Notes: a model not told the origin generated them from the letters alone. 64,000 nt of DNA from Desulfatiglandales bacterium (GCA_963662465.1 OY759599.1:4384001-4448000); one strand, 5' to 3'; numbered from the stretch's first letter, positions 9,497 through 42,361 are shown. A program made the numbers and translations.

Positions 9497-9625
9497 TTAT
9501 GCCGCGAGCGGCATAACAGATGTAATGCCGACTCCCGGATTATGCCGTATTGCCAATTTTATCCGTTTTAACTGGTCGAAACTGCGTTGGACCCCTTATT
9601 CTCATGGCTCTTTCAATCGGCATAA

Positions 9626-17532: not shown

Positions 17533-17667
17533 GTGGTCTCTCCTTTCGTTTGGCGGGATTGCCAAACCGAAGATCCCACAAAAATTATGCCGCGTCAGCA
17601 ACTACTTCAAGGCACGAATAATCCCACAAAATTCTTGTAATGCGGCATAATCCGGGAGTCGGCATTA

Positions 17668-23464: not shown

Positions 23465-23778
23465 TTTATGAACTCCCTTACTTCTTTTTCAAATCTTTCT
23501 ACAAGTTCCCGATAACTTATAAATTTTTCAACCTCAGATATTTCTCCAAAGTAGTGCTTATGGTGGAAATTATGAGTATTGTCATAGCCTAAAACCCTGC
23601 CATTATCTCCAGAGAAAATAAGATGATTGATATAGGCCATGCTGTATTTTACTATTTCGCCCTGTTCATTCTCCCATGCATCAATTTTGACAAGTCCTCC
23701 CCCTCTTTTGGGATTTATGGAGAATTGTTCAGATACAACTTTTTTGAACTTGGTTTTGCCCGTTCGTTTGGATTTCAT
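23461..23778 (-). CDS. DUF6516/TumE-like toxin
   Basis: KYSMAY...RVLGYDNTHNFHHKH motif. Confidence 0.7.
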   Translation of the reverse strand: MKSKRTGKTKFKKVVSEQFSINPKRGGGLVKIDAWENEQGEIVKYSMAYINHLIFSGDNGRVLGYDNTHNFHHKHYFGEISEVEKFISYRELVERFEKEVREFIK

Positions 23779-26075: not shown

Positions 26076-26161
26076 GCGAACGACAAGCTCACCAGCGCCT
26101 CCTCCGGGCCCCCGCCGGAACCGCCCAAGTATCAGGCGTCTGGTGCAGCGTTTGGTTCGCA
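26076..26161 (-). other. attC of the DUF1566 cassette
   Basis: TGCGAAC-CAAACGCTGCACCAGACGCC...GGCGCTGGTGAGCTTGTC-GTTCGC|C. Confidence 0.88.
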
Positions 26162-26582
26162 ATTCCAACGGCATATATGAGTAGTGCGGGCTTTATTCAA
26201 AGCCAACAATCGATTTATGAAGGCATAAAAACGCTTATGGCTTCTTCACTGGCGTGCCTTCAGTGTGGTCCCCTTAGTTTCTACGATTACTTAAAAGCAT
26301 GTTTTTGGCTTCAAAAAGGTGCTTCTAAGAATTAAAAACACCGTTTTTTTTAAGTCAAACTAATGAATTCATGTCTATCTTCTTGGTCCGACCCCAGATC
26401 TCAATTTCCGTTCCCTTTTGTCGCAAATGTCTTTTCCATCCCTATCCGGTTCCTGCACACAATGGGCCGTTGTACCAGCGAGATCTCAACTATCGTCAGT
26501 GATTTAAATCTCAACCTATGACAACACCTGTTTTTCACGCCGATGCTTTCGAAATGTCGCGAAAAAGACGTATAATGCTGAA

Positions 26583-27992: not shown

Positions 27993-28350
27993 ATTAGTAC
28001 CTCCTTGTCAAAATTTGAACGGATTATCAAAAAAATAGAAATCGTATATGTGCACTGGCGCAAGAAAAAACGGACAAAAAAAAATCCTAATTCCCCTACA
28101 CCTCCTGAAGGTGAACATCAGCAGGGGTGACCCCACCCAGTGTCGGCCGGGGAAACTGGAAATTACTCAAGTGAACCGTTTCCCCTAATGCCAGGTGGAC
28201 GCGTTCAACATATGCCTTATGGGAAGCTGCATATATTAGAGCATCAAAACCTTATCATTTGCCTATGGTGCCAAACATGTGAGCCTGCCATTTTGTTTCC
28301 TCTTGTCTCCTAAGAAGACAGCATAAAACCTGACGCAATGTCCTCTTGCA

Positions 28351-28481
28351 CGCGAACGTTTAGTTAACTGGAAAACGGGTTCAAAAAAATATATTATCAT
28401 TCCAGCTGGTGACTTCGTAGGAACCAACGCATTTCGGTTTATCTCCCAATACCAGTTTTCCAGTTCAACGGGGTGTTGGAC
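28351..28481 (-). other. attC of the IS91-like cassette (repeated at 29960, 31569, 33178, 34787, 36396, 38005 and 39614)
   Basis: GTCCAAC-ACCCCG-TTGAACTGGAAAAC...GTTTTCCAGTTAA-CTAAAC-GTT; extrahelical base in L''; 131 bp. Confidence 0.88.
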
Positions 28482-28722
28482 AGAGCCGCGGGTCATCAGC
28501 ACATACTTTGCCGGAAGCAGGAGATCGGCTATGGAGATTAAGGGAGCTTCTCAGCTGTCGCGTGACCTCTTTTTAACCCGTCATGGCCGGTTAAGGATGA
28601 TAAAATTCCTGCTTTCAATTGCATGATCCGTCAAAAACCCTGAAATATCGCGTTATTTATCCCTTTACCAAACGCCTCGCCATTCAAGTGCCTTTTTGAA
28701 TATGCTCATGTTTATTATCGTT

Positions 28723-29922
28723 TTACGCTGCCTGTGCATATACCGTATCCGGGTCCTTATTGAACCTCGGAAGACTTTTTGACTTTCTTACCGGTGCAAC
28801 TATTTTCAACGTAATAAGACGTTTCCCGCAAACTGGGCAACAATCCGGTTGCTCGTCGCTTCGCTGCTGCCACAGACTCTGCCAGTCCAGAAATTCCGTA
28901 TCTTCAAGTGCCGGTTGTCCCAGTATTTCCCGGCAGCGTGCCAGTTCTTTTTTTGCGTTGTGATGGTAAAGGCCGTATGAACGCACCATCATGGAATTCG
29001 CCAGGGGAACGTGTTGCAGGTAGCGGCCGATAAAGGTTTGAATCGGCAAGGTAATGAGTCTTACCCGCTCACGACCGTAATTGAAGGTGACGTTTCCGTT
29101 TTCAATGCGGAAGATGCGTTTATTTGAGATCGGTCCGCCTCTCAGATACCGGGCCAGGTAAATTAAGACCCCTTCTCCGTATGAATAGGTCTCCTTGAGT
29201 TTAACGTTCCACTTCTTACGGCGCCCCAACTTATTAAACAGGTTTCGCGCCTGCTGCGGTCCCATGCCTTCGGGCAGAATCAGTTCTTCACGGGCAAGGG
29301 CTTTTCTCAAATAGTGGAGATATTTTCCTCGAAAAACCGCCCGGACAATGCCAAACGGCAGAAGAAACGTTTTTGATGAAGCAATCCACTCGCCGGCGGA
29401 CAGACCACCGGCCGTCACCAAACAATGCAAATGGGGATGAAAATCCAATTTTCGGCTCCAGGTATGCAACGAGGCAATGATGCCGACTTTGGCCCCCAAA
29501 TGCTTCGGGTCTCCAAGGAGTTCGGAAAGGGTCTCGGTCGCGCTTTTGAACAGCAGATTAGCCATGACTTTACGGTTCAGCCGCCATAAGTCATGCAATT
29601 CATCGGAGATGGTGAAAATAACGTGGAAATGCTCGGCACTCAGGAGTCGGGCCTTTTGTTTCGCCAGCCACCGCTCAACCTGGGTGAAGGCGCAGAGTGG
29701 GCACATACGGTGTTTACACGAGTTATACCAGACCCTCTGGAAGTGACCATCCGGACATGCCTGGACGTGCCCCCCCAGAATGGACGTGCGGCAGGACATC
29801 AGACGATGAGCCGCCTCACGAATATGTTCCGGAAGACAATGCGTCTGATTATAGAGGGCATAGCCAAGAAGAAAGATGCCCTGAATCGTCGTTTCCACTG
29901 CGATTTCACCTATTTCTACCAA
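28723..29922 (-). CDS. IS91-family (Y2 HUH) transposase, copy 8 from attI
   Basis: Zn-binding CPDGH...SCKHRMCPLC; HUH HPHLH; Y2 YLARY; VRSYG; CPVCG. Confidence 0.92.
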   Translation of the reverse strand: MVEIGEIAVETTIQGIFLLGYALYNQTHCLPEHIREAAHRLMSCRTSILGGHVQACPDGHFQRVWYNSCKHRMCPLCAFTQVERWLAKQKARLLSAEHFHVIFTISDELHDLWRLNRKVMANLLFKSATETLSELLGDPKHLGAKVGIIASLHTWSRKLDFHPHLHCLVTAGGLSAGEWIASSKTFLLPFGIVRAVFRGKYLHYLRKALAREELILPEGMGPQQARNLFNKLGRRKKWNVKLKETYSYGEGVLIYLARYLRGGPISNKRIFRIENGNVTFNYGRERVRLITLPIQTFIGRYLQHVPLANSMMVRSYGLYHHNAKKELARCREILGQPALEDTEFLDWQSLWQQRSDEQPDCCPVCGKRLITLKIVAPVRKSKSLPRFNKDPDTVYAQAA

Positions 29923-30331
29923 TTTTCGACGTTAAGTTCCCCCGCTGTCCAGCGGGTCTGTCCAACGTTTAGTTAACTGGAAAACGGGTTCAAAAAAATA
30001 TATTATCATTCCAGCTGGTGACTTCGTAGGAACCAACGCATTTCGGTTTATCTCCCAATACCAGTTTTCCAGTTCAACGGGGTGTTGGACAGAGCCGCGG
30101 GTCATCAGCACATACTTTGCCGGAAGCAGGAGATCGGCTATGGAGATTAAGGGAGCTTCTCAGCTGTCGCGTGACCTCTTTTTAACCCGTCATGGCCGGT
30201 TAAGGATGATAAAATTCCTGCTTTCAATTGCATGATCCGTCAAAAACCCTGAAATATCGCGTTATTTATCCCTTTACCAAACGCCTCGCCATTCAAGTGC
30301 CTTTTTGAATATGCTCATGTTTATTATCGTT

Positions 30332-31531
30332 TTACGCTGCCTGTGCATATACCGTATCCGGGTCCTTATTGAACCTCGGAAGACTTTTTGACTTTCTTAC
30401 CGGTGCAACTATTTTCAACGTAATAAGACGTTTCCCGCAAACTGGGCAACAATCCGGTTGCTCGTCGCTTCGCTGCTGCCACAGACTCTGCCAGTCCAGA
30501 AATTCCGTATCTTCAAGTGCCGGTTGTCCCAGTATTTCCCGGCAGCGTGCCAGTTCTTTTTTTGCGTTGTGATGGTAAAGGCCGTATGAACGCACCATCA
30601 TGGAATTCGCCAGGGGAACGTGTTGCAGGTAGCGGCCGATAAAGGTTTGAATCGGCAAGGTAATGAGTCTTACCCGCTCACGACCGTAATTGAAGGTGAC
30701 GTTTCCGTTTTCAATGCGGAAGATGCGTTTATTTGAGATCGGTCCGCCTCTCAGATACCGGGCCAGGTAAATTAAGACCCCTTCTCCGTATGAATAGGTC
30801 TCCTTGAGTTTAACGTTCCACTTCTTACGGCGCCCCAACTTATTAAACAGGTTTCGCGCCTGCTGCGGTCCCATGCCTTCGGGCAGAATCAGTTCTTCAC
30901 GGGCAAGGGCTTTTCTCAAATAGTGGAGATATTTTCCTCGAAAAACCGCCCGGACAATGCCAAACGGCAGAAGAAACGTTTTTGATGAAGCAATCCACTC
31001 GCCGGCGGACAGACCACCGGCCGTCACCAAACAATGCAAATGGGGATGAAAATCCAATTTTCGGCTCCAGGTATGCAACGAGGCAATGATGCCGACTTTG
31101 GCCCCCAAATGCTTCGGGTCTCCAAGGAGTTCGGAAAGGGTCTCGGTCGCGCTTTTGAACAGCAGATTAGCCATGACTTTACGGTTCAGCCGCCATAAGT
31201 CATGCAATTCATCGGAGATGGTGAAAATAACGTGGAAATGCTCGGCACTCAGGAGTCGGGCCTTTTGTTTCGCCAGCCACCGCTCAACCTGGGTGAAGGC
31301 GCAGAGTGGGCACATACGGTGTTTACACGAGTTATACCAGACCCTCTGGAAGTGACCATCCGGACATGCCTGGACGTGCCCCCCCAGAATGGACGTGCGG
31401 CAGGACATCAGACGATGAGCCGCCTCACGAATATGTTCCGGAAGACAATGCGTCTGATTATAGAGGGCATAGCCAAGAAGAAAGATGCCCTGAATCGTCG
31501 TTTCCACTGCGATTTCACCTATTTCTACCAA
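30332..31531 (-). CDS. IS91-family transposase, copy 7
   Basis: Identical translation. Confidence 0.92.
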   Translation of the reverse strand: MVEIGEIAVETTIQGIFLLGYALYNQTHCLPEHIREAAHRLMSCRTSILGGHVQACPDGHFQRVWYNSCKHRMCPLCAFTQVERWLAKQKARLLSAEHFHVIFTISDELHDLWRLNRKVMANLLFKSATETLSELLGDPKHLGAKVGIIASLHTWSRKLDFHPHLHCLVTAGGLSAGEWIASSKTFLLPFGIVRAVFRGKYLHYLRKALAREELILPEGMGPQQARNLFNKLGRRKKWNVKLKETYSYGEGVLIYLARYLRGGPISNKRIFRIENGNVTFNYGRERVRLITLPIQTFIGRYLQHVPLANSMMVRSYGLYHHNAKKELARCREILGQPALEDTEFLDWQSLWQQRSDEQPDCCPVCGKRLITLKIVAPVRKSKSLPRFNKDPDTVYAQAA

Positions 31532-31940
31532 TTTTCGACGTTAAGTTCCCCCGCTGTCCAGCGGGTCTGTCCAACGTTTAGTTAACTGGAAAACGGGTTC
31601 AAAAAAATATATTATCATTCCAGCTGGTGACTTCGTAGGAACCAACGCATTTCGGTTTATCTCCCAATACCAGTTTTCCAGTTCAACGGGGTGTTGGACA
31701 GAGCCGCGGGTCATCAGCACATACTTTGCCGGAAGCAGGAGATCGGCTATGGAGATTAAGGGAGCTTCTCAGCTGTCGCGTGACCTCTTTTTAACCCGTC
31801 ATGGCCGGTTAAGGATGATAAAATTCCTGCTTTCAATTGCATGATCCGTCAAAAACCCTGAAATATCGCGTTATTTATCCCTTTACCAAACGCCTCGCCA
31901 TTCAAGTGCCTTTTTGAATATGCTCATGTTTATTATCGTT

Positions 31941-33140
31941 TTACGCTGCCTGTGCATATACCGTATCCGGGTCCTTATTGAACCTCGGAAGACTTTTTGA
32001 CTTTCTTACCGGTGCAACTATTTTCAACGTAATAAGACGTTTCCCGCAAACTGGGCAACAATCCGGTTGCTCGTCGCTTCGCTGCTGCCACAGACTCTGC
32101 CAGTCCAGAAATTCCGTATCTTCAAGTGCCGGTTGTCCCAGTATTTCCCGGCAGCGTGCCAGTTCTTTTTTTGCGTTGTGATGGTAAAGGCCGTATGAAC
32201 GCACCATCATGGAATTCGCCAGGGGAACGTGTTGCAGGTAGCGGCCGATAAAGGTTTGAATCGGCAAGGTAATGAGTCTTACCCGCTCACGACCGTAATT
32301 GAAGGTGACGTTTCCGTTTTCAATGCGGAAGATGCGTTTATTTGAGATCGGTCCGCCTCTCAGATACCGGGCCAGGTAAATTAAGACCCCTTCTCCGTAT
32401 GAATAGGTCTCCTTGAGTTTAACGTTCCACTTCTTACGGCGCCCCAACTTATTAAACAGGTTTCGCGCCTGCTGCGGTCCCATGCCTTCGGGCAGAATCA
32501 GTTCTTCACGGGCAAGGGCTTTTCTCAAATAGTGGAGATATTTTCCTCGAAAAACCGCCCGGACAATGCCAAACGGCAGAAGAAACGTTTTTGATGAAGC
32601 AATCCACTCGCCGGCGGACAGACCACCGGCCGTCACCAAACAATGCAAATGGGGATGAAAATCCAATTTTCGGCTCCAGGTATGCAACGAGGCAATGATG
32701 CCGACTTTGGCCCCCAAATGCTTCGGGTCTCCAAGGAGTTCGGAAAGGGTCTCGGTCGCGCTTTTGAACAGCAGATTAGCCATGACTTTACGGTTCAGCC
32801 GCCATAAGTCATGCAATTCATCGGAGATGGTGAAAATAACGTGGAAATGCTCGGCACTCAGGAGTCGGGCCTTTTGTTTCGCCAGCCACCGCTCAACCTG
32901 GGTGAAGGCGCAGAGTGGGCACATACGGTGTTTACACGAGTTATACCAGACCCTCTGGAAGTGACCATCCGGACATGCCTGGACGTGCCCCCCCAGAATG
33001 GACGTGCGGCAGGACATCAGACGATGAGCCGCCTCACGAATATGTTCCGGAAGACAATGCGTCTGATTATAGAGGGCATAGCCAAGAAGAAAGATGCCCT
33101 GAATCGTCGTTTCCACTGCGATTTCACCTATTTCTACCAA
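31941..33140 (-). CDS. IS91-family transposase, copy 6
   Basis: Identical translation. Confidence 0.92.
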   Translation of the reverse strand: MVEIGEIAVETTIQGIFLLGYALYNQTHCLPEHIREAAHRLMSCRTSILGGHVQACPDGHFQRVWYNSCKHRMCPLCAFTQVERWLAKQKARLLSAEHFHVIFTISDELHDLWRLNRKVMANLLFKSATETLSELLGDPKHLGAKVGIIASLHTWSRKLDFHPHLHCLVTAGGLSAGEWIASSKTFLLPFGIVRAVFRGKYLHYLRKALAREELILPEGMGPQQARNLFNKLGRRKKWNVKLKETYSYGEGVLIYLARYLRGGPISNKRIFRIENGNVTFNYGRERVRLITLPIQTFIGRYLQHVPLANSMMVRSYGLYHHNAKKELARCREILGQPALEDTEFLDWQSLWQQRSDEQPDCCPVCGKRLITLKIVAPVRKSKSLPRFNKDPDTVYAQAA

Positions 33141-33549
33141 TTTTCGACGTTAAGTTCCCCCGCTGTCCAGCGGGTCTGTCCAACGTTTAGTTAACTGGAA
33201 AACGGGTTCAAAAAAATATATTATCATTCCAGCTGGTGACTTCGTAGGAACCAACGCATTTCGGTTTATCTCCCAATACCAGTTTTCCAGTTCAACGGGG
33301 TGTTGGACAGAGCCGCGGGTCATCAGCACATACTTTGCCGGAAGCAGGAGATCGGCTATGGAGATTAAGGGAGCTTCTCAGCTGTCGCGTGACCTCTTTT
33401 TAACCCGTCATGGCCGGTTAAGGATGATAAAATTCCTGCTTTCAATTGCATGATCCGTCAAAAACCCTGAAATATCGCGTTATTTATCCCTTTACCAAAC
33501 GCCTCGCCATTCAAGTGCCTTTTTGAATATGCTCATGTTTATTATCGTT

Positions 33550-34749
33550 TTACGCTGCCTGTGCATATACCGTATCCGGGTCCTTATTGAACCTCGGAAG
33601 ACTTTTTGACTTTCTTACCGGTGCAACTATTTTCAACGTAATAAGACGTTTCCCGCAAACTGGGCAACAATCCGGTTGCTCGTCGCTTCGCTGCTGCCAC
33701 AGACTCTGCCAGTCCAGAAATTCCGTATCTTCAAGTGCCGGTTGTCCCAGTATTTCCCGGCAGCGTGCCAGTTCTTTTTTTGCGTTGTGATGGTAAAGGC
33801 CGTATGAACGCACCATCATGGAATTCGCCAGGGGAACGTGTTGCAGGTAGCGGCCGATAAAGGTTTGAATCGGCAAGGTAATGAGTCTTACCCGCTCACG
33901 ACCGTAATTGAAGGTGACGTTTCCGTTTTCAATGCGGAAGATGCGTTTATTTGAGATCGGTCCGCCTCTCAGATACCGGGCCAGGTAAATTAAGACCCCT
34001 TCTCCGTATGAATAGGTCTCCTTGAGTTTAACGTTCCACTTCTTACGGCGCCCCAACTTATTAAACAGGTTTCGCGCCTGCTGCGGTCCCATGCCTTCGG
34101 GCAGAATCAGTTCTTCACGGGCAAGGGCTTTTCTCAAATAGTGGAGATATTTTCCTCGAAAAACCGCCCGGACAATGCCAAACGGCAGAAGAAACGTTTT
34201 TGATGAAGCAATCCACTCGCCGGCGGACAGACCACCGGCCGTCACCAAACAATGCAAATGGGGATGAAAATCCAATTTTCGGCTCCAGGTATGCAACGAG
34301 GCAATGATGCCGACTTTGGCCCCCAAATGCTTCGGGTCTCCAAGGAGTTCGGAAAGGGTCTCGGTCGCGCTTTTGAACAGCAGATTAGCCATGACTTTAC
34401 GGTTCAGCCGCCATAAGTCATGCAATTCATCGGAGATGGTGAAAATAACGTGGAAATGCTCGGCACTCAGGAGTCGGGCCTTTTGTTTCGCCAGCCACCG
34501 CTCAACCTGGGTGAAGGCGCAGAGTGGGCACATACGGTGTTTACACGAGTTATACCAGACCCTCTGGAAGTGACCATCCGGACATGCCTGGACGTGCCCC
34601 CCCAGAATGGACGTGCGGCAGGACATCAGACGATGAGCCGCCTCACGAATATGTTCCGGAAGACAATGCGTCTGATTATAGAGGGCATAGCCAAGAAGAA
34701 AGATGCCCTGAATCGTCGTTTCCACTGCGATTTCACCTATTTCTACCAA
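33550..34749 (-). CDS. IS91-family transposase, copy 5
   Basis: Identical translation. Confidence 0.92.
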   Translation of the reverse strand: MVEIGEIAVETTIQGIFLLGYALYNQTHCLPEHIREAAHRLMSCRTSILGGHVQACPDGHFQRVWYNSCKHRMCPLCAFTQVERWLAKQKARLLSAEHFHVIFTISDELHDLWRLNRKVMANLLFKSATETLSELLGDPKHLGAKVGIIASLHTWSRKLDFHPHLHCLVTAGGLSAGEWIASSKTFLLPFGIVRAVFRGKYLHYLRKALAREELILPEGMGPQQARNLFNKLGRRKKWNVKLKETYSYGEGVLIYLARYLRGGPISNKRIFRIENGNVTFNYGRERVRLITLPIQTFIGRYLQHVPLANSMMVRSYGLYHHNAKKELARCREILGQPALEDTEFLDWQSLWQQRSDEQPDCCPVCGKRLITLKIVAPVRKSKSLPRFNKDPDTVYAQAA

Positions 34750-35158
34750 TTTTCGACGTTAAGTTCCCCCGCTGTCCAGCGGGTCTGTCCAACGTTTAGT
34801 TAACTGGAAAACGGGTTCAAAAAAATATATTATCATTCCAGCTGGTGACTTCGTAGGAACCAACGCATTTCGGTTTATCTCCCAATACCAGTTTTCCAGT
34901 TCAACGGGGTGTTGGACAGAGCCGCGGGTCATCAGCACATACTTTGCCGGAAGCAGGAGATCGGCTATGGAGATTAAGGGAGCTTCTCAGCTGTCGCGTG
35001 ACCTCTTTTTAACCCGTCATGGCCGGTTAAGGATGATAAAATTCCTGCTTTCAATTGCATGATCCGTCAAAAACCCTGAAATATCGCGTTATTTATCCCT
35101 TTACCAAACGCCTCGCCATTCAAGTGCCTTTTTGAATATGCTCATGTTTATTATCGTT

Positions 35159-36358
35159 TTACGCTGCCTGTGCATATACCGTATCCGGGTCCTTATTGAA
35201 CCTCGGAAGACTTTTTGACTTTCTTACCGGTGCAACTATTTTCAACGTAATAAGACGTTTCCCGCAAACTGGGCAACAATCCGGTTGCTCGTCGCTTCGC
35301 TGCTGCCACAGACTCTGCCAGTCCAGAAATTCCGTATCTTCAAGTGCCGGTTGTCCCAGTATTTCCCGGCAGCGTGCCAGTTCTTTTTTTGCGTTGTGAT
35401 GGTAAAGGCCGTATGAACGCACCATCATGGAATTCGCCAGGGGAACGTGTTGCAGGTAGCGGCCGATAAAGGTTTGAATCGGCAAGGTAATGAGTCTTAC
35501 CCGCTCACGACCGTAATTGAAGGTGACGTTTCCGTTTTCAATGCGGAAGATGCGTTTATTTGAGATCGGTCCGCCTCTCAGATACCGGGCCAGGTAAATT
35601 AAGACCCCTTCTCCGTATGAATAGGTCTCCTTGAGTTTAACGTTCCACTTCTTACGGCGCCCCAACTTATTAAACAGGTTTCGCGCCTGCTGCGGTCCCA
35701 TGCCTTCGGGCAGAATCAGTTCTTCACGGGCAAGGGCTTTTCTCAAATAGTGGAGATATTTTCCTCGAAAAACCGCCCGGACAATGCCAAACGGCAGAAG
35801 AAACGTTTTTGATGAAGCAATCCACTCGCCGGCGGACAGACCACCGGCCGTCACCAAACAATGCAAATGGGGATGAAAATCCAATTTTCGGCTCCAGGTA
35901 TGCAACGAGGCAATGATGCCGACTTTGGCCCCCAAATGCTTCGGGTCTCCAAGGAGTTCGGAAAGGGTCTCGGTCGCGCTTTTGAACAGCAGATTAGCCA
36001 TGACTTTACGGTTCAGCCGCCATAAGTCATGCAATTCATCGGAGATGGTGAAAATAACGTGGAAATGCTCGGCACTCAGGAGTCGGGCCTTTTGTTTCGC
36101 CAGCCACCGCTCAACCTGGGTGAAGGCGCAGAGTGGGCACATACGGTGTTTACACGAGTTATACCAGACCCTCTGGAAGTGACCATCCGGACATGCCTGG
36201 ACGTGCCCCCCCAGAATGGACGTGCGGCAGGACATCAGACGATGAGCCGCCTCACGAATATGTTCCGGAAGACAATGCGTCTGATTATAGAGGGCATAGC
36301 CAAGAAGAAAGATGCCCTGAATCGTCGTTTCCACTGCGATTTCACCTATTTCTACCAA
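35159..36358 (-). CDS. IS91-family transposase, copy 4
   Basis: Identical translation. Confidence 0.92.
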   Translation of the reverse strand: MVEIGEIAVETTIQGIFLLGYALYNQTHCLPEHIREAAHRLMSCRTSILGGHVQACPDGHFQRVWYNSCKHRMCPLCAFTQVERWLAKQKARLLSAEHFHVIFTISDELHDLWRLNRKVMANLLFKSATETLSELLGDPKHLGAKVGIIASLHTWSRKLDFHPHLHCLVTAGGLSAGEWIASSKTFLLPFGIVRAVFRGKYLHYLRKALAREELILPEGMGPQQARNLFNKLGRRKKWNVKLKETYSYGEGVLIYLARYLRGGPISNKRIFRIENGNVTFNYGRERVRLITLPIQTFIGRYLQHVPLANSMMVRSYGLYHHNAKKELARCREILGQPALEDTEFLDWQSLWQQRSDEQPDCCPVCGKRLITLKIVAPVRKSKSLPRFNKDPDTVYAQAA

Positions 36359-36767
36359 TTTTCGACGTTAAGTTCCCCCGCTGTCCAGCGGGTCTGTCCA
36401 ACGTTTAGTTAACTGGAAAACGGGTTCAAAAAAATATATTATCATTCCAGCTGGTGACTTCGTAGGAACCAACGCATTTCGGTTTATCTCCCAATACCAG
36501 TTTTCCAGTTCAACGGGGTGTTGGACAGAGCCGCGGGTCATCAGCACATACTTTGCCGGAAGCAGGAGATCGGCTATGGAGATTAAGGGAGCTTCTCAGC
36601 TGTCGCGTGACCTCTTTTTAACCCGTCATGGCCGGTTAAGGATGATAAAATTCCTGCTTTCAATTGCATGATCCGTCAAAAACCCTGAAATATCGCGTTA
36701 TTTATCCCTTTACCAAACGCCTCGCCATTCAAGTGCCTTTTTGAATATGCTCATGTTTATTATCGTT

Positions 36768-37967
36768 TTACGCTGCCTGTGCATATACCGTATCCGGGTC
36801 CTTATTGAACCTCGGAAGACTTTTTGACTTTCTTACCGGTGCAACTATTTTCAACGTAATAAGACGTTTCCCGCAAACTGGGCAACAATCCGGTTGCTCG
36901 TCGCTTCGCTGCTGCCACAGACTCTGCCAGTCCAGAAATTCCGTATCTTCAAGTGCCGGTTGTCCCAGTATTTCCCGGCAGCGTGCCAGTTCTTTTTTTG
37001 CGTTGTGATGGTAAAGGCCGTATGAACGCACCATCATGGAATTCGCCAGGGGAACGTGTTGCAGGTAGCGGCCGATAAAGGTTTGAATCGGCAAGGTAAT
37101 GAGTCTTACCCGCTCACGACCGTAATTGAAGGTGACGTTTCCGTTTTCAATGCGGAAGATGCGTTTATTTGAGATCGGTCCGCCTCTCAGATACCGGGCC
37201 AGGTAAATTAAGACCCCTTCTCCGTATGAATAGGTCTCCTTGAGTTTAACGTTCCACTTCTTACGGCGCCCCAACTTATTAAACAGGTTTCGCGCCTGCT
37301 GCGGTCCCATGCCTTCGGGCAGAATCAGTTCTTCACGGGCAAGGGCTTTTCTCAAATAGTGGAGATATTTTCCTCGAAAAACCGCCCGGACAATGCCAAA
37401 CGGCAGAAGAAACGTTTTTGATGAAGCAATCCACTCGCCGGCGGACAGACCACCGGCCGTCACCAAACAATGCAAATGGGGATGAAAATCCAATTTTCGG
37501 CTCCAGGTATGCAACGAGGCAATGATGCCGACTTTGGCCCCCAAATGCTTCGGGTCTCCAAGGAGTTCGGAAAGGGTCTCGGTCGCGCTTTTGAACAGCA
37601 GATTAGCCATGACTTTACGGTTCAGCCGCCATAAGTCATGCAATTCATCGGAGATGGTGAAAATAACGTGGAAATGCTCGGCACTCAGGAGTCGGGCCTT
37701 TTGTTTCGCCAGCCACCGCTCAACCTGGGTGAAGGCGCAGAGTGGGCACATACGGTGTTTACACGAGTTATACCAGACCCTCTGGAAGTGACCATCCGGA
37801 CATGCCTGGACGTGCCCCCCCAGAATGGACGTGCGGCAGGACATCAGACGATGAGCCGCCTCACGAATATGTTCCGGAAGACAATGCGTCTGATTATAGA
37901 GGGCATAGCCAAGAAGAAAGATGCCCTGAATCGTCGTTTCCACTGCGATTTCACCTATTTCTACCAA
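36768..37967 (-). CDS. IS91-family transposase, copy 3
   Basis: Identical translation. Confidence 0.92.
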   Translation of the reverse strand: MVEIGEIAVETTIQGIFLLGYALYNQTHCLPEHIREAAHRLMSCRTSILGGHVQACPDGHFQRVWYNSCKHRMCPLCAFTQVERWLAKQKARLLSAEHFHVIFTISDELHDLWRLNRKVMANLLFKSATETLSELLGDPKHLGAKVGIIASLHTWSRKLDFHPHLHCLVTAGGLSAGEWIASSKTFLLPFGIVRAVFRGKYLHYLRKALAREELILPEGMGPQQARNLFNKLGRRKKWNVKLKETYSYGEGVLIYLARYLRGGPISNKRIFRIENGNVTFNYGRERVRLITLPIQTFIGRYLQHVPLANSMMVRSYGLYHHNAKKELARCREILGQPALEDTEFLDWQSLWQQRSDEQPDCCPVCGKRLITLKIVAPVRKSKSLPRFNKDPDTVYAQAA

Positions 37968-38376
37968 TTTTCGACGTTAAGTTCCCCCGCTGTCCAGCGG
38001 GTCTGTCCAACGTTTAGTTAACTGGAAAACGGGTTCAAAAAAATATATTATCATTCCAGCTGGTGACTTCGTAGGAACCAACGCATTTCGGTTTATCTCC
38101 CAATACCAGTTTTCCAGTTCAACGGGGTGTTGGACAGAGCCGCGGGTCATCAGCACATACTTTGCCGGAAGCAGGAGATCGGCTATGGAGATTAAGGGAG
38201 CTTCTCAGCTGTCGCGTGACCTCTTTTTAACCCGTCATGGCCGGTTAAGGATGATAAAATTCCTGCTTTCAATTGCATGATCCGTCAAAAACCCTGAAAT
38301 ATCGCGTTATTTATCCCTTTACCAAACGCCTCGCCATTCAAGTGCCTTTTTGAATATGCTCATGTTTATTATCGTT

Positions 38377-39576
38377 TTACGCTGCCTGTGCATATACCGT
38401 ATCCGGGTCCTTATTGAACCTCGGAAGACTTTTTGACTTTCTTACCGGTGCAACTATTTTCAACGTAATAAGACGTTTCCCGCAAACTGGGCAACAATCC
38501 GGTTGCTCGTCGCTTCGCTGCTGCCACAGACTCTGCCAGTCCAGAAATTCCGTATCTTCAAGTGCCGGTTGTCCCAGTATTTCCCGGCAGCGTGCCAGTT
38601 CTTTTTTTGCGTTGTGATGGTAAAGGCCGTATGAACGCACCATCATGGAATTCGCCAGGGGAACGTGTTGCAGGTAGCGGCCGATAAAGGTTTGAATCGG
38701 CAAGGTAATGAGTCTTACCCGCTCACGACCGTAATTGAAGGTGACGTTTCCGTTTTCAATGCGGAAGATGCGTTTATTTGAGATCGGTCCGCCTCTCAGA
38801 TACCGGGCCAGGTAAATTAAGACCCCTTCTCCGTATGAATAGGTCTCCTTGAGTTTAACGTTCCACTTCTTACGGCGCCCCAACTTATTAAACAGGTTTC
38901 GCGCCTGCTGCGGTCCCATGCCTTCGGGCAGAATCAGTTCTTCACGGGCAAGGGCTTTTCTCAAATAGTGGAGATATTTTCCTCGAAAAACCGCCCGGAC
39001 AATGCCAAACGGCAGAAGAAACGTTTTTGATGAAGCAATCCACTCGCCGGCGGACAGACCACCGGCCGTCACCAAACAATGCAAATGGGGATGAAAATCC
39101 AATTTTCGGCTCCAGGTATGCAACGAGGCAATGATGCCGACTTTGGCCCCCAAATGCTTCGGGTCTCCAAGGAGTTCGGAAAGGGTCTCGGTCGCGCTTT
39201 TGAACAGCAGATTAGCCATGACTTTACGGTTCAGCCGCCATAAGTCATGCAATTCATCGGAGATGGTGAAAATAACGTGGAAATGCTCGGCACTCAGGAG
39301 TCGGGCCTTTTGTTTCGCCAGCCACCGCTCAACCTGGGTGAAGGCGCAGAGTGGGCACATACGGTGTTTACACGAGTTATACCAGACCCTCTGGAAGTGA
39401 CCATCCGGACATGCCTGGACGTGCCCCCCCAGAATGGACGTGCGGCAGGACATCAGACGATGAGCCGCCTCACGAATATGTTCCGGAAGACAATGCGTCT
39501 GATTATAGAGGGCATAGCCAAGAAGAAAGATGCCCTGAATCGTCGTTTCCACTGCGATTTCACCTATTTCTACCAA
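38377..39576 (-). CDS. IS91-family transposase, copy 2
   Basis: Identical translation. Confidence 0.92.
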   Translation of the reverse strand: MVEIGEIAVETTIQGIFLLGYALYNQTHCLPEHIREAAHRLMSCRTSILGGHVQACPDGHFQRVWYNSCKHRMCPLCAFTQVERWLAKQKARLLSAEHFHVIFTISDELHDLWRLNRKVMANLLFKSATETLSELLGDPKHLGAKVGIIASLHTWSRKLDFHPHLHCLVTAGGLSAGEWIASSKTFLLPFGIVRAVFRGKYLHYLRKALAREELILPEGMGPQQARNLFNKLGRRKKWNVKLKETYSYGEGVLIYLARYLRGGPISNKRIFRIENGNVTFNYGRERVRLITLPIQTFIGRYLQHVPLANSMMVRSYGLYHHNAKKELARCREILGQPALEDTEFLDWQSLWQQRSDEQPDCCPVCGKRLITLKIVAPVRKSKSLPRFNKDPDTVYAQAA

Positions 39577-39985
39577 TTTTCGACGTTAAGTTCCCCCGCT
39601 GTCCAGCGGGTCTGTCCAACGTTTAGTTAACTGGAAAACGGGTTCAAAAAAATATATTATCATTCCAGCTGGTGACTTCGTAGGAACCAACGCATTTCGG
39701 TTTATCTCCCAATACCAGTTTTCCAGTTCAACGGGGTGTTGGACAGAGCCGCGGGTCATCAGCACATACTTTGCCGGAAGCAGGAGATCGGCTATGGAGA
39801 TTAAGGGAGCTTCTCAGCTGTCGCGTGACCTCTTTTTAACCCGTCATGGCCGGTTAAGGATGATAAAATTCCTGCTTTCAATTGCATGATCCGTCAAAAA
39901 CCCTGAAATATCGCGTTATTTATCCCTTTACCAAACGCCTCGCCATTCAAGTGCCTTTTTGAATATGCTCATGTTTATTATCGTT

Positions 39986-41185
39986 TTACGCTGCCTGTGC
40001 ATATACCGTATCCGGGTCCTTATTGAACCTCGGAAGACTTTTTGACTTTCTTACCGGTGCAACTATTTTCAACGTAATAAGACGTTTCCCGCAAACTGGG
40101 CAACAATCCGGTTGCTCGTCGCTTCGCTGCTGCCACAGACTCTGCCAGTCCAGAAATTCCGTATCTTCAAGTGCCGGTTGTCCCAGTATTTCCCGGCAGC
40201 GTGCCAGTTCTTTTTTTGCGTTGTGATGGTAAAGGCCGTATGAACGCACCATCATGGAATTCGCCAGGGGAACGTGTTGCAGGTAGCGGCCGATAAAGGT
40301 TTGAATCGGCAAGGTAATGAGTCTTACCCGCTCACGACCGTAATTGAAGGTGACGTTTCCGTTTTCAATGCGGAAGATGCGTTTATTTGAGATCGGTCCG
40401 CCTCTCAGATACCGGGCCAGGTAAATTAAGACCCCTTCTCCGTATGAATAGGTCTCCTTGAGTTTAACGTTCCACTTCTTACGGCGCCCCAACTTATTAA
40501 ACAGGTTTCGCGCCTGCTGCGGTCCCATGCCTTCGGGCAGAATCAGTTCTTCACGGGCAAGGGCTTTTCTCAAATAGTGGAGATATTTTCCTCGAAAAAC
40601 CGCCCGGACAATGCCAAACGGCAGAAGAAACGTTTTTGATGAAGCAATCCACTCGCCGGCGGACAGACCACCGGCCGTCACCAAACAATGCAAATGGGGA
40701 TGAAAATCCAATTTTCGGCTCCAGGTATGCAACGAGGCAATGATGCCGACTTTGGCCCCCAAATGCTTCGGGTCTCCAAGGAGTTCGGAAAGGGTCTCGG
40801 TCGCGCTTTTGAACAGCAGATTAGCCATGACTTTACGGTTCAGCCGCCATAAGTCATGCAATTCATCGGAGATGGTGAAAATAACGTGGAAATGCTCGGC
40901 ACTCAGGAGTCGGGCCTTTTGTTTCGCCAGCCACCGCTCAACCTGGGTGAAGGCGCAGAGTGGGCACATACGGTGTTTACACGAGTTATACCAGACCCTC
41001 TGGAAGTGACCATCCGGACATGCCTGGACGTGCCCCCCCAGAATGGACGTGCGGCAGGACATCAGACGATGAGCCGCCTCACGAATATGTTCCGGAAGAC
41101 AATGCGTCTGATTATAGAGGGCATAGCCAAGAAGAAAGATGCCCTGAATCGTCGTTTCCACTGCGATTTCACCTATTTCTACCAA
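39986..41185 (-). CDS. IS91-family transposase, copy 1 (attI-proximal)
   Basis: Identical translation. Confidence 0.92.
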   Translation of the reverse strand: MVEIGEIAVETTIQGIFLLGYALYNQTHCLPEHIREAAHRLMSCRTSILGGHVQACPDGHFQRVWYNSCKHRMCPLCAFTQVERWLAKQKARLLSAEHFHVIFTISDELHDLWRLNRKVMANLLFKSATETLSELLGDPKHLGAKVGIIASLHTWSRKLDFHPHLHCLVTAGGLSAGEWIASSKTFLLPFGIVRAVFRGKYLHYLRKALAREELILPEGMGPQQARNLFNKLGRRKKWNVKLKETYSYGEGVLIYLARYLRGGPISNKRIFRIENGNVTFNYGRERVRLITLPIQTFIGRYLQHVPLANSMMVRSYGLYHHNAKKELARCREILGQPALEDTEFLDWQSLWQQRSDEQPDCCPVCGKRLITLKIVAPVRKSKSLPRFNKDPDTVYAQAA

Positions 41186-41222
41186 TTTTCGACGTTAAGT
41201 TCCCCCGCTGTCCAGCGGGTCT

Positions 41223-41263
41223 GTCCAACAGTCCTAATAGGTGGAAAATTTTCCACCTATTAG
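41223..41263 (-). other. attI site (crossover G41229/TT)
   Basis: Repeat identity ends at the GTT core (GGACT-GTTGGAC), about 135 bp upstream of the divergent intI. Confidence 0.8.
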
Positions 41264-41328
41264 CCCTATAACATGGAAAAAATTCCATCTATTGCCATAT
41301 TGAAGTCTAAAACATGGAAAAAATCCTA

Positions 41329-41358
41329 TTGACTTTTCCATCTATTGCGCAATATCGT
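41329..41358 (+). promoter_or_regulatory. Possible intI promoter
   Basis: TTGACT-N18-TATCGT just upstream of ATG 41366. Confidence 0.3.
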
Positions 41359-41365
41359 CAATAGC

Positions 41366-42361
41366 ATGGAAAAATCGAAAAAATTCCGACCGGATCCCAA
41401 ACTTCGTCTTATGGATCAGGTTCGACAAGTTCTACGCTATCACCACTACGCCTATCGCACAGAACAAACTTATTGCGATTGGATCATGCGCTATATCCGG
41501 TACCATGGGAGCAATACCCATCCTCGGAATATGGGTAAGAAAGAAATCGAAGCCTTTCTGTCCCATTTGGCGGTTCAACAACACGTTGCCGCCTCCACCC
41601 AGCGCCAAGCTCTTAATGCGATTATTTTCCTATACAAAAGAGTCCTTGATATTCCGGTTGACGAAGATCTTGACCCTGTCCGCGCCAAAAGACGCTCCCG
41701 CCCCCCGGTTGTCATGAGCCAACGGGAGGTTTCCATTGTTTTGGAACACATGCACGGTTTGCATCTCCTCATGGCGAAAATCCTGTACGGCAGCGGCCTG
41801 CGGTTAATGGAGTGCATCCGACTCCGTATTCGCGATCTTGATTTTGAACGCGGGCTTATTTACGTTCGAGCCGCAAAAGGCGGTAAGGACCGTACCACCC
41901 TTTTTCCGGAATCCCTCCACTCCCTCATGAAAAATCAGGTTGAAGCGGTTGAAAAACTTCATCGGCAGGACCTGGCGGATGGATATGGGGATGTTTATCT
42001 TCCAAACGCCCTTGCCCGCAAATACCCCAATGCCGCCAAATCCCTGGGTTGGCAATATGTATTTCCCTCAAAAAAACGCAGCAAGGATCCCCGATCAGGT
42101 AAAACAATGCGGCATCATGTTCTTGAATCCGGGCTCCAAAAAGCCGTGAAGGCCGCTGTTGGAAAGGCGGGACTTACAAAACCCGTCGGTTGTCATACCT
42201 TTCGCCATTCTTTTGCAACGCATTTGCTTGAAAACGGGGTGAACATTCGGGTGGTTCAGGAATTGTTGGGCCATGCGGATGTGAAGACCACCGAGATCTA
42301 CACCCACGTAATGGAAAAGGACATTTCCGTGGTTCGAAGTCCTTTGGATGGGCTTTTGTGA
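41366..42361 (+). CDS. intI: Integron integrase
   Basis: HYAYRTEQTY, ASTQRQAL, YGSGLR, KGGKDR; IntI-specific patch VYLPNALARKYPNA...WQYVFPS; HTFRHSFATHLL, LGHADVKTTEIYTH. Confidence 0.97.
   Translation: MEKSKKFRPDPKLRLMDQVRQVLRYHHYAYRTEQTYCDWIMRYIRYHGSNTHPRNMGKKEIEAFLSHLAVQQHVAASTQRQALNAIIFLYKRVLDIPVDEDLDPVRAKRRSRPPVVMSQREVSIVLEHMHGLHLLMAKILYGSGLRLMECIRLRIRDLDFERGLIYVRAAKGGKDRTTLFPESLHSLMKNQVEAVEKLHRQDLADGYGDVYLPNALARKYPNAAKSLGWQYVFPSKKRSKDPRSGKTMRHHVLESGLQKAVKAAVGKAGLTKPVGCHTFRHSFATHLLENGVNIRVVQELLGHADVKTTEIYTHVMEKDISVVRSPLDGLL

Follow-up and report, generated by a model that had tools for sequence, protein, structure and literature searches.

Integrons are usually viewed as neutral platforms, the cassettes of which are cargo useful to the host. 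In the genome of a Desulfatiglandales bacterium the attI site of one integron is followed by eight identical copies of a unit that encodes a transposase, which raises the question of what these units are and which enzymes have inserted and multiplied them. The window analysed comprises 64,000 nucleotides (GCA_963662465.1, OY759599.1:4384001-4448000); positions are counted from its first letter, and a slash within G/TT and similar sequences marks the crossover point.

Organization and copy number of the array

The array of IS91-transposase cassettes occupies positions 28357..41228 on the minus strand, as delimited by periodicity, junction sequences and read depth. A period of 1609 bp is exact over positions 28355-41229, corresponding to eight units and a 3-nt GTT overlap, with zero mismatches between neighbouring units. 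Copies 1-4 are located at 28357-29965, 29966-31574, 31575-33183 and 33184-34792, and copies 5-8 at 34793-36401, 36402-38010, 38011-39619 and 39620-41228, all on the minus strand. Along this strand attI, ending in AGGACTG, is followed by eight repeats of TTGGAC...AACTAAACG and then by TTCGCG. The array fits exactly between the G of attI on one side and the TT of the next cassette on the other; its junctions (attI-G/TTGGAC...AAACG/TTCGCG) are of the IntI-recombination type, and no target duplication is present at its ends apart from the GTT core. The eight copies have displaced the rest of the window's cassette array by 12.9 kb from attI. The 100% identity among the units says only that the array is recent.

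Copy number was estimated from word depth in Logan unitigs of two public runs (X3 and X4) of one sample, which are possibly the source data of the assembly itself and so perhaps not independent of it; unitig depth is a rough measure. The flanks have a depth of 33.6 (X3) and 43.9 (X4), and the unit has a depth of 350.7 and 424.4, or 10.4 and 9.7 times that of the flank, to be set against 8+1 identical copies in the genome plus one 99% copy. A 56-nt unitig across the unit-to-unit junction has a depth of 251.1 and 303.9, or 7.5 and 6.9 times the flank, where a factor of 7 is expected for eight tandem copies and circular copies would count at the same junction. Because the unit and junction depths match eight tandem plus two dispersed copies, the eightfold array is real and not an assembly artefact. 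The initial annotation had described eight 1609-bp units with these bounds and without target duplication, and both the exact periodicity and the junctions agree with it, as does the copy number obtained from depth.

The unit as an integron cassette

Each unit ends in an attC site of 131 nt, identified by its fold and boxes, which in copy 1 lies at 28351..28481 on the minus strand and is repeated at +1609 x k. In that copy the boxes, on the same strand, are R'' at 28475-28481, L'' at 28455-28469, L' at 28363-28376, and an R' composed of G 28357 and the TTCGCG of the next cassette. The site consists, in this order, of R'' (GTCCAAC), 5 nt of spacer, L'' (GTTgAACTGGAAAAC, which has a single extra base, G), L' (GTTTTCCAGTTAAC), another 5-nt spacer and R' (G/TTGGAC). 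Judged manually, without a covariance model, the site has the features of a canonical attC (R'' RYYYAAC, R' GTTRRRY, paired L'' and L', an extra base on the L'' side, a length of 57-141 nt), and its orientation relative to attI is canonical as well. L'' and L' covary among cassette lineages (ACTGG/CCAGT, ACAGG/CCTGT and ACCGG/CCGGT). In addition, the first 15 nt of the cassette pair with the 15 nt ending in R'', by which the R''/R' stem is lengthened to 15 bp.

The unit is bounded by a G/TT crossover at both ends, as are its other copies, and starts with a TTRRRY sequence; it lies downstream of attI and a divergent intI, with its gene along the array direction. These features support its assignment, as read from the DNA, to the true integron cassettes located at attI, and the earlier proposal of a cassette at attI ending in a 131-nt attC is upheld by the boxes, the fold and the G/TT junctions.

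The integrase gene intI (41345..42361, plus strand, with an in-frame ATG at 41366) is divergent from the cassettes. Its product matches TIGR02249 with 445.7 bits (cut-off 265) in an unbroken match over 1-315, and also the Pfam families Phage_integrase and Phage_int_SAM_4; the insert specific for the IntI subfamily is present, and the gene is a genuine intI. The region 41229..41344 (minus strand) contains the crossover G at 41229 and, upstream of it, a palindrome (AATAGGTGGAAAA/TTTTCCACCTATT) and repeated ATGGAAAAAAT-like motifs; from its position it would act as attI. A paralogous intI at G000 3287696-3288643 adjoins the same attI layout, with 124/140 nt alike.

On the other side of the array lies the cassette that was formerly the first (26081..28356, minus strand), which starts with TTCGCG, has its own attC and encodes a secreted protein with an Lcl_C domain (26583-27992, minus strand; Pfam Lcl_C 5.8e-59). 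Its attC (26075-26161, minus strand; R'' tGCGAAC, L'' GCTgCACCAGaCGCC, L' GGCGCTGGTGAGC, R' GTTCGCG) represents an attC family of which the genome contains at least 53 members. A group II intron (23850..26075, minus strand; Rfam RF02012 122.5 bits, RF00029 55 bits) with a reverse transcriptase/maturase (TIGR04416, 362 bits) sits 6 nt into the R' of this attC (GTTCGC^GTGCGAC), in the orientation of the cassettes.

The transposase gene and conserved elements of the unit

The gene for the Y2/HUH IS91-family transposase, identified by Pfam and NCBIfam matches, lies at 28723..29898 on the minus strand in copy 1, and copies 2-8 have it at +1609 x k. The longest open reading frame starts with TTG at 29922 and comprises 399 aa; an alignment of 11 copies indicates GTG 29898 as the likelier start, giving 391 aa. 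The protein matches Y2_Tnp (5e-49), Zn_Tnp_IS91 (2e-24) and NF033538 (357 bits, cut-off 125), and the HPHLH (HUH) motif and both tyrosines (YLARY) are invariant in alignment A1. It has the N-terminal zinc-binding domain, HUH motif and two catalytic tyrosines that characterize the IS91 family. Between lineages with dS of at least 0.17 the dN/dS ratio is 0.03-0.13, about 0.1. The comparison of copies indicates that the gene is under purifying selection, and from the invariant HUH and tyrosine residues and the dN/dS the transposase is predicted to be functional. The transposase is the only gene of the 1609-bp unit and intact, as first annotated: a same-strand upstream tyrosine recombinase is lacking, and no Pfam matches are present in the unit's three antisense open reading frames or in one reading frame across attC. 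The most distant IS91-type genes elsewhere in the genome share only 24% identity.

Between the gene and attC lie approximately 240 nt of conserved non-coding DNA. The box AATCTCCATAG (28529..28539, minus strand), approximately 45 nt before R'' in every unit, is invariant in 11/11 aligned copies, one of which is merely 73% alike, and may be considered a candidate origin-like site for the transposase. The sequence CCATA[GA] is found downstream of the gene in 59 of 64 related loci. The same untranslated region contains a small hairpin, TTAACCGGCCATGACGGGTTAA (28573..28594, minus strand), which in the alignment of copies is conserved in every unit. At the 5' end of the cassette (29941..29965, minus strand, and likewise in every unit) TTGGAC and AGA precede the hairpin CCCGCTG-GA-CAGCGGG; here 23-29 nt are invariant across 11 copies, and this end is regarded as a candidate for a terminus-like site. 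Among 63 related loci, 35 have the layout GTTNNAY, 3-4 nt and a perfect hairpin of at least 5 bp, with ten distinct, covarying stems; in 200 shuffles it was found in 0.35 loci on average and in no more than 4.

Further copies in the genome

Nine further copies of the cassette (A-I) bring the total in the genome to seventeen. They are located directly after attI (B, E and H) or directly after the attC of another cassette (A, F, G and I), copies C and D having a group II intron at the 5' end; copies F and G share one 6.7-kb duplication and are hence not independent. Five places in the genome score above the TIGR02249 cut-off, and at the three best-scoring of these the cassette is the first at attI. 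No other tandemly repeated cassettes were found in five self-compared integron regions of the genome.

In a second integron the 1609 bp are 100% identical, with intI and attI 94.7% alike (1128/1191) and unrelated downstream DNA; the cassette has moved recently and precisely between the two integrons. The attI sites used by the cassette are of two unrelated sequence types. The precise transfer and the two attI types speak for insertion by the cognate IntI and against insertion by the transposase. Following GTT, the next base differs between copies (C, A or G, with one GAT), and the upstream flanks end in ...CTG, ...ATG or ...TCG. Copy C is followed by G/AT, not G/TT, and one Natroniella copy likewise, which would fit secondary GWT sites. 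The copies do not lie consistently beside GTTC/CTTG as in an IS91-type insertion; the constant part is the integron core GTT.

Related cassettes and sister elements

Related loci with shared ends number 76, from Thermodesulfobacteriota, Nitrospirota, Nitrospinota, Pseudomonadota and Bacillota. Sixty of the loci have sufficient flanking sequence, and 13 of these 60 have a divergent IntI homologue no more than 1.5 kb upstream; in 7 of these 13 the gap between the homologue and the cassette start is 86-349 nt. A strict test finds the end architecture in 27 of the 57 loci having both flanks, and pairing of L'' with L' in 16 of 29. By eye, more loci seem to fit the end architecture than pass these tests, an impression to which no count is attached. 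A same-strand recombinase directly upstream is seen in 1 of the 76 loci (L110; tblastn).

Perfect tandem copies occur elsewhere too: two at L040, two in Undibacterium nitidum (L072) and three in Natroniella. In U. nitidum a canonical IntI gave no match at E<=1e-30, and in Natroniella the only candidate found was an IntI-like recombinase, 1.5 kb upstream of the first copy; the sites upstream of three Natroniella copies do not fold attC-like. In such tandems either IntI is dispensable, or another recombinase substitutes for it.

Sister elements are found among the IS91-like elements with a tyrosine recombinase gene upstream (Int+Y2), a group with members in ISfinder. Their recombinases reach 188-218 bits against TIGR02249, under the cut-off because the IntI insert is missing. 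Like the window cassette, they have at the 5' end GTTGAAC, an 8-nt extension and a GC hairpin, and at the 3' end AATCCCCATAG, a complementary extension with GTCCAAC, a long hairpin and GTT. This architecture (GTTRRAY with a hairpin; CCATAG box with an attC-like hairpin) was read in two G013 copies, L040, L014, L015 and L018, all of which carry a recombinase and the CCATAG box; no such box was seen in the recombinase-carrying L021. The Int+Y2 transposases share 33-39% identity with that of the window. Whereas they carry their own IntI-like recombinase, the window cassette has none and adjoins a true IntI. At L040, the two tandem recombinase-less cassettes lie exactly at the G/TT of an Int+Y2 terminal hairpin. 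In the tree the Int+Y2 elements group in a single clade (SH-aLRT 95) separate from the recombinase-less elements, the branching order being compatible with either loss or gain of the recombinase. The role of the IntI-like recombinases in this subgroup of IS91 elements has, to our knowledge, not been explained. The statement of the initial annotation that relatives of such a size come with a tyrosine recombinase of their own, which the single-gene unit lacks, gains support from the Int+Y2 elements.

Comparison with known systems

The description of the cassette as an undescribed system is overstated, since a family member is catalogued: a report on IncN blaIMP-6 plasmids gives gcISKpn22, an INTEGRALL name, as the fourth cassette carried by the class 1 integron In722 (PMC6262049). 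Like the window unit, gcISKpn22 is a cassette that contains an IS91-family transposase gene (371 aa, with HPHIH and YLARY both intact) but no recombinase gene. Its start, G/TTGAAC, directly follows the attC of aadA2, and its own attC (...TAAGCG/TTAGAT) forms its end, where the 3'-conserved segment starts. Its protein shares 44-50% identity with the gammaproteobacterial clade of the family and 37% with the window's protein. Unlike the window unit, it is present as a single copy, last in the array, in a mobile class 1 integron, and its 5' hairpin looks imperfect. In a literature search gcISKpn22 appeared only as a database label; no analysis of its ends, family, position bias, amplification or mechanism was found.

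With IS91, IS801, IS1294 and ISCR the window unit shares the Y2/HUH transposase with N-terminal zinc-binding domain, and with canonical IS91 and ISCR elements the absence of DDE-type inverted repeats and target duplication; ISCR1 also occurs in (complex) class 1 integrons (PMC8876359). In contrast to canonical IS91 and ISCR elements, the unit is bounded by integron crossovers, ends in attC and occupies cassette positions, including attI, and unlike in canonical IS91 the flanking tetranucleotide is not consistently GTTC/CTTG. As in ordinary cassettes, one gene and an attC lie in the usual orientation at attI G/TT, with a hybrid R' at each junction. Ordinary cassettes do not, however, have a selected transposase as cargo, approximately 240 nt of conserved non-coding DNA, a 15-bp R''/R' stem, seventeen copies per genome or perfect tandem amplification. 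The IS1111-attC insertion sequences and group IIC-attC introns, other mobile elements specialised on integron sites (PMC9229058), are likewise parasites of integron recombination sites. They interrupt attC by means of their own DDE transposase or reverse transcriptase, whereas the window unit constitutes a cassette and apparently depends on the integrase of the integron.

Mechanism of insertion and amplification

The interpretation that we favour, and to which we assign an even chance, is that of a selfish IS91-derived cassette which IntI inserts in trans and for which the transposase drives a replicative rolling-circle supply of single strands. We infer IntI as the inserting enzyme, the generation of single strands by the HUH enzyme, and the mode of array growth; the part given to the HUH enzyme rests on the purifying selection, the conserved cis elements outside attC and the tandem copies without canonical IntI. 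In IS91 rolling-circle transposition the bottom strand is displaced, from the end downstream of the gene. The element would have kept its Y2/HUH transposase and its own ends, i.e., the 5' hairpin, the box AATCTCCATAG and, at the terminus, a hairpin that would be a working attC. Being recombinase-less, the cassette would be inserted in trans by the integron integrase at the G/TT of attI or of another attC, and the transposase would still be required for its spread. Most likely the transposase would nick the conserved ends and drive rolling-circle copying, which would free the bottom strand in single-stranded form, the form in which attC folds and IntI recombines. Insertion would be replicative, the donor copy remaining and a new copy arriving at attI, and repeated insertion, or insertion of a rolling-circle concatemer, would give rise to eight identical tandem copies.

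The integer array itself is the same whether produced by IntI re-insertion, by unequal exchange through RecA or IntI, or by a rolling circle, and the transposase could be under purifying selection for a route of transposition that does not involve the integron. It is conceivable, with distinctly less weight than the favoured interpretation, that IntI acts alone, the transposase gene being mere cargo and the array resulting from IntI re-insertion or from unequal exchange by attC x attC recombination or RecA. All junctions are standard IntI junctions, and re-insertion at attI and cassette duplication, reportedly established in the work of Escudero, Loot and Mazel, are normal integron behaviour; from two copies on, homologous exchange can expand an array without a special enzyme. 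As would be the case for any cassette, In722 occurs with and without the related cassette, ISKpn22+/- variants having been mentioned (PMC12772345). Action of IntI alone leaves unexplained, however, a dN/dS near 0.1 in a gene that is of no use to the host, the conserved 240-nt untranslated region, the 5' hairpin found across phyla and the ends common to recombinase-carrying relatives. Nor does it explain why, in the integron regions compared, only this cassette is perfectly tandem, and why perfect tandems are found again in three further genomes, in two of which no canonical IntI was matched.

It is improbable that the Y2 transposase acts alone by cutting the GTT core of attI or attC, so that an IS91 element homes without IntI and builds the array by rolling-circle transposition. 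IS91-family elements insert beside a GTTC/CTTG tetranucleotide without duplication, and GTTC does follow the cassette in the window, in copies E and F/G and at L011; other copies are followed by GTTA, GTTG or GATG. The copies and tandem copies in genomes without a canonical IntI, and the Natroniella sites that lack an attC-like fold, would suit such homing, but Natroniella has the IntI-like recombinase near its first copy. In addition, attI sites have little in common apart from GTT, each being recognised by its cognate IntI, whereas here the exact G/TT crossover is found at two unrelated attI types and diverse IntI adjoin 13 other loci; the terminal hairpin, moreover, possesses extra bases and spacers of the kind read by IntI. 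Finally, an inflation by the assembler of one or two real copies at attI is highly implausible: perfect repeats exceeding short-read length do assemble poorly and the depth runs may be the assembly's own data, but the genome was assembled into one closed contig of 8.16 Mb and the unit and junction depths are those of eight tandem plus two dispersed copies.

Implications for integron biology

In this genome the cargo is a transposase under selection that holds the best-expressed position in three integrons. The cassette family spans at least five phyla, with one relative inside a clinical class 1 integron, and its recurrence across phyla with a shared design points to a mobile element that makes copies of itself by way of integrons. 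If IntI alone moves the cassette, it would still represent a clear family of selfish cassettes, of use as a natural marker for recent activity of integrons. If the HUH enzyme supplies single-stranded attC, as the favoured interpretation holds, this would offer a direct, testable handle on a limiting step of integron recombination, the origin of the folded single-stranded attC, and would account for the IntI-like recombinases in the IS91 subgroup. Tentatively, the Y2/HUH transposase and the integron integrase may form a two-enzyme replicative pathway, in which the peeled-off single strand folds into attC and is pasted by IntI at attI. If so, the cassette would be a dedicated integron parasite, and no earlier example is known of a cassette that produces the substrate for its own recombination; the IntI-like recombinase and attC-like ends of the sister elements would then point to a common origin with attC/IntI recombination, and this IS91 lineage would be a possible source of attC sites.

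The tandem array and its read support

A direct periodicity test gives an exact 1609-nt periodicity over 28355-41229, corresponding to eight units plus three bases, with zero differences between neighbouring units anywhere across the array. On the minus strand the junctions read ...CCACCTATTAGGACTG / TTGGACAGACCC ... GTTAACTAAACG (eight times) / TTCGCGTGCAAG..., where slashes, here and below, mark the boundaries. The three-base overlap at the ends of the array is the GTT core, the crossover point of integron recombination. Periodicity and junctions together place the cassettes at 28357-41228, which is exactly the extent, in eight 1609-bp units, proposed in the initial annotation. Tandem Repeats Finder, with a longest allowed period of 500 versus the 1609 present here, reported no array. 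Among the loci examined, this is the largest tandem amplification.

Three public sequencing runs contain the stretch, two of which (X3 and X4) derive from one sample. In X3 and X4, which may be the assembly's own data, the Logan unitig depths, a coarse measure, are 33.6 and 43.9 for single-copy flanks (1x), 350.7 and 424.4 for the cassette unit (10.4x and 9.7x the flank) and 251.1 and 303.9 for a 56-nt unitig spanning the unit-to-unit junction (7.5x and 6.9x), a junction that circular copies would raise as well. Eight tandem copies have seven such junctions, and a unit depth of about 10x is expected because the genome contains nine identical copies, eight in the array and one elsewhere, and a further copy with 99% identity; the depths of both runs agree with these values. 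The third run, X5, from another sample with the same organism label, contains related cassettes beside the other of the two attI types in the genome and no unit-to-unit junction in its contigs, which show presence, not absence. Overlapping ends occur in one of twelve short contigs (L105, 55 nt), which adds no evidence for circles or tandem copies.

The host integron and the neighbours of the array

The window holds a real integron. The divergent gene at 41345-42361 matches the integron integrase model TIGR02249 with 445.7 bits (cut-off 265) over the full length of the model. The cassette that follows the array starts with TTCGCG, encodes a secreted Lcl_C-domain protein and carries an attC of its own (R'' tGCGAAC, L'' GCTgCACCAGaCGCC, L' GGCGCTGGTGAGC, R' GTTCGCG). 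The genome contains at least 53 members of the family to which this attC belongs, and they cluster in arrays. A strict RYYYAAC...GTTRRRY scan without fold filter recovered only the attC of the IS91 cassette; that of the neighbour was identified by reading and by the family pattern.

A group II intron (23850-26075, minus strand) interrupts the Lcl_C attC after the first six bases of its R' box (GTTCGC^GTGCGAC), in the orientation of the cassettes. Published attC-targeting group IIC introns, as far as described in PMC9229058, usually have the opposite orientation. Further intron copies lie on the minus strand at 4651-7267 and 20135-22144, with 602-aa reverse transcriptases at 6003-7811 and 20180-21988, and Rfam RF02005 matches 22369-22617. 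A 1307-nt tandem partial duplication with 99.9% identity leaves a truncated reverse-transcriptase frame of 434 aa at 4696-6000. Past the intron in the Lcl_C attC, a two-gene cassette-like unit (23090-23778, minus strand) encodes a TumE-family toxin (PF20126, 8.6e-10) and a small protein resembling HVO_A0114 (5.4e-6, slightly below the Pfam cut-off), and is probably a toxin-antitoxin cassette. Toxin-antitoxin pairs are typical content of chromosomal integrons.

Transposase gene and cassette ends

Each unit contains one 399-aa open reading frame on the minus strand, with a likely GTG start that gives 391 aa. The protein matches the Pfam domains Y2_Tnp (5e-49) and Zn_Tnp_IS91 (2e-24) and the NCBIfam model NF033538 for IS91 family transposases (357 bits, cut-off 125). 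It contains the HUH motif HPHLH and the tyrosine pair YLARY, both invariant across six diverged family members, and the description of the gene as an intact HUH/Y2 transposase is upheld. Comparisons of lineages separated by a dS of 0.17 or more give dN/dS values of 0.03-0.13, indicating that the transposase has been kept functional. No Pfam match was obtained for three antisense frames of the unit or for a further frame that overlies the attC.

The gene is followed by 241 nt of non-coding DNA and a 131-nt attC. Box-by-box reading of this site gives R'' GTCCAAC, spacer ACCCC, L'' GTTgAACTGGAAAAC with one extra base, L' GTTTTCCAGTTAAC, spacer TAAAC and R' G/TTGGAC, and thus bears out the attC assigned earlier to the unit end from its R'' and the TTGGAC start. 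The extra base is on the L'' side, the orientation expected with the integrase gene to the right. Reverse complementarity between the cassette's first 15 nt and the 15 nt up to and including R'' extends the attC stem by eight pairs beyond the usual length. Lineages show covariation in the L''/L' stem, with ACTGG opposite CCAGT, ACAGG opposite CCTGT and ACCGG opposite CCGGT.

Eleven aligned copies show little or no variation in the first 23-29 nt, with a GC hairpin three bases after TTGGAC, in a box AATCTCCATAG of the non-coding DNA and in the last 18 nt up to the end of R''. These conserved non-coding parts look like cis sites of the transposase. RNAalifold returned no structure for the 5' hairpin, the loops of unequal length being left unaligned, and a geometry count with a shuffle control was used instead.

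Further copies in the genome

The genome, a single contig of 8.16 Mb, contains nine further cassette copies (A-I) at 73-100% DNA identity. Copies B, E and H directly follow the G of attI, copies A, F, G and I directly follow the G of another cassette's attC, and copies C and D have a group II intron at their 5' end. At C and D (genome positions 3339700 and 3354083) this is the same kind of intron as that in the Lcl_C attC, abutting as ...CTCGAC/CAGACCC. Copies F and G are not independent, because both lie, with their neighbours, within a 6.7-kb segmental duplication (99.7%; 6740378-6747061 and 6782943-6789626) in the largest cassette array.

TIGR02249 scores above its cut-off at five places in the genome, and the IS91 cassette is the first cassette at all three full-length ones with more than 440 bits. 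In five integron regions of the genome that were each compared with themselves, no other cassette is tandemly repeated. Three adjacent tyrosine recombinase genes with weak TIGR02249 matches recur at four places (about 8286-11583 and 16309-17601 of the window, with the third gene 5 kb away from the other two, and genome positions 1582688-1585373, 2491659-2494343 and 7140750-7143435), an arrangement that matches recombinase-in-trio elements.

Over all 1609 bp, copy B does not differ from the window unit, while intI and attI beside it are 94.7% alike to those of the window (1128/1191) and the downstream DNA is unrelated. A segment bounded exactly by two crossover points has thus moved recently between two diverged integrons. 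The cassette copies use two attI types of unrelated sequence. In copy E (genome positions 3745944-3747483) and at two loci from other sources, L035 and L036, an attI-like stretch of 30-228 nt (palindrome TTATCAGG...CCTGATAA, 5 nt, G/TT) precedes the cassette, with no intI within 2.5-3.4 kb upstream. Either intI has been lost at these places or attI DNA has been carried along with the cassette, and the comparison is compatible with both.

A family of IS91-derived cassettes

Matches are present in 10 of 61 related genomes, the own genome included, and in two congeners copies with 85-87% identity directly follow the second attI type. When one genome per species was scanned, 76 loci with 35-87% identity were obtained, in Thermodesulfobacteriota, Nitrospirota, Nitrospinota, Pseudomonadota and Bacillota. 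A strict end test, demanding a GTTRRRY start able to pair at no fewer than 11 of 15 positions with the sequence that terminates in R'' behind the CCATAG box, is passed by 27 of the 57 loci with both flanks; more fit by eye and were left uncounted. The CCATA[GA] box is found in 59 of 64 related loci, and a crude L''/L' pairing test is passed by 16 of 29. GTTNNAY followed after 3-4 nt by a perfect hairpin of at least 5 bp occurs in 35 of 63 loci (shuffles: mean 0.35, maximum 4), with ten different hairpin stems among the related loci. The initial annotation had proposed a search for homologues with attC ends next to intI. Of the 60 loci whose upstream flank reaches 1.5 kb or more, 13 have a divergent IntI homologue, 46-66% identical to that of the window, within 1.5 kb upstream, at 86-349 nt from the cassette start in seven of them.

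Perfect tandem copies elsewhere number two in the scaffold L040, two in Undibacterium nitidum (L072) and three in a complete Natroniella genome (L111). No IntI match at E<=1e-30 was found in U. nitidum, and none over the TIGR02249 cut-off in Natroniella, which has only an IntI-like recombinase (350 aa, NF040815 231 bits) 1.5 kb upstream of the first copy. In the Natroniella locus (L111, 2264-13207) this recombinase is followed by an unknown 367-aa gene, a single Y2 unit and, after a spacer of 1.9 kb, a perfect tandem array of three Y2 units of 1627 bp each; the sites upstream of three of the copies do not fold like attC.

A plasmid search gave, as the closest annotated relatives, sequences with at most 39% identity, one of which is located in the class 1 integron In722 of IncN plasmids, in the order intI1, aac(6')-Ib, blaIMP-6, aadA2, 'IS91 family transposase', qacEdelta1. 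Reading of the DNA (L112, an IncN plasmid with In722, 3913-5366) reveals a true fourth cassette of this clinical resistance integron, between aadA2 and qacEdelta1. It starts G/TTGAAC after the aadA2 attC, and its own attC ends ...TAAGCG/TTAGAT at the start of the 3'-conserved segment. The protein shares 44-50% identity with the family's gammaproteobacterial clade, and the 5' hairpin looks imperfect in comparison with the environmental relatives. The INTEGRALL description, as quoted in PMC6262049, reads 'intI1, aacA4'-3, blaIMP-6, aadA2, and gcISKpn22', and In722 is mentioned with and without ISKpn22 in PMC12772345.

The initial annotation saw here a candidate for an undescribed system, but the kind of element is not wholly undescribed, since one member has been catalogued as gcISKpn22. 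In the openly searchable literature, no study was found that treats IS91-type cassettes as a family or deals with their ends, attI position, tandem amplification or mechanism. The cassette belongs to a family of IS91-derived integron cassettes that is widespread but barely described; the original observation is real, and with the extent of this family and the largest tandem amplification it is richer than first reported.

Sister elements with their own recombinase

In homologues with 33-39% identity, the gene immediately upstream encodes a tyrosine recombinase, as had been stated for IS91-like relatives. Two copies in one genome delimit a recombinase-linked element of 2.58 kb, whose ends are the same as those of the cassette: GTTGAAC, an extension and a GC hairpin at the 5' end, and AATCCCCATAG, the complementary extension with GTCCAAC, a long hairpin and GTT at the 3' end. 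The recombinases score 188-218 bits against TIGR02249, where the match is split into two segments that leave out the IntI insert, and 183-231 bits against NF040815, and are thus IntI-like but not IntI. In L040 (928-6143) an element with recombinase and Y2 transposase is followed by two perfect tandem recombinase-less Y2 cassettes, exactly at G/TT of its terminal hairpin. The left edge of L040 contains a partial IntI homologue, and the scaffold is filed under an archaeal bin, yet resembles the co-cultured Desulfobacteraceae scaffolds L039 and L041.

A quick maximum-likelihood tree was made of 78 transposases, eleven loci being omitted because of a short match or an interrupting stop or undetermined residue. 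Six recombinase-linked sequences form one clade (SH-aLRT 95) and 66 recombinase-less sequences another (SH-aLRT 90), with four more recombinase-less ones apart. The tree leaves the order of the three groups open, so that loss and gain of the recombinase are both compatible with it.

Possible mechanism of amplification

The analysis shows the anatomy of the cassette, its exact junctions and copy number, its recent transfer, the selection on its gene, the conservation of its ends and its recurrence in other genomes. We infer, with good support, that IntI is the inserting enzyme, because the element lies exactly at the crossover point of various attI sites, each recognised only by its cognate integrase, and, with moderate support, that the transposase still acts on the cassette's own ends. 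A model joining rolling-circle copying by the transposase to insertion by IntI has, in our judgement, about an even chance of being correct. The transposase would nick at the conserved ends and drive rolling-circle copying, which would release the cassette as bottom-strand single-stranded DNA, a step that builds on the direction of strand displacement in IS91. The ends of this strand would fold into the attC, and IntI would recombine it with attI. Insertion would thus be replicative, and identical copies could pile up at attI.

Movement by IntI only, with expansion of the array by RecA or IntI, is a rather unlikely explanation. The exact attI junctions are in line with it, but the cassette has kept 240 nt of conserved spacer, which an ordinary cassette would have no reason to do. 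An HUH-only element homing to GTT cores is improbable: the tandem copies in U. nitidum and Natroniella might fit such homing, and the use of diverse attI sites argues for IntI. Given the junction depth in the reads, an assembly artefact as the source of the array is extremely improbable. The joint action of the HUH transposase and the integron integrase is a proposal, and one that is directly testable.
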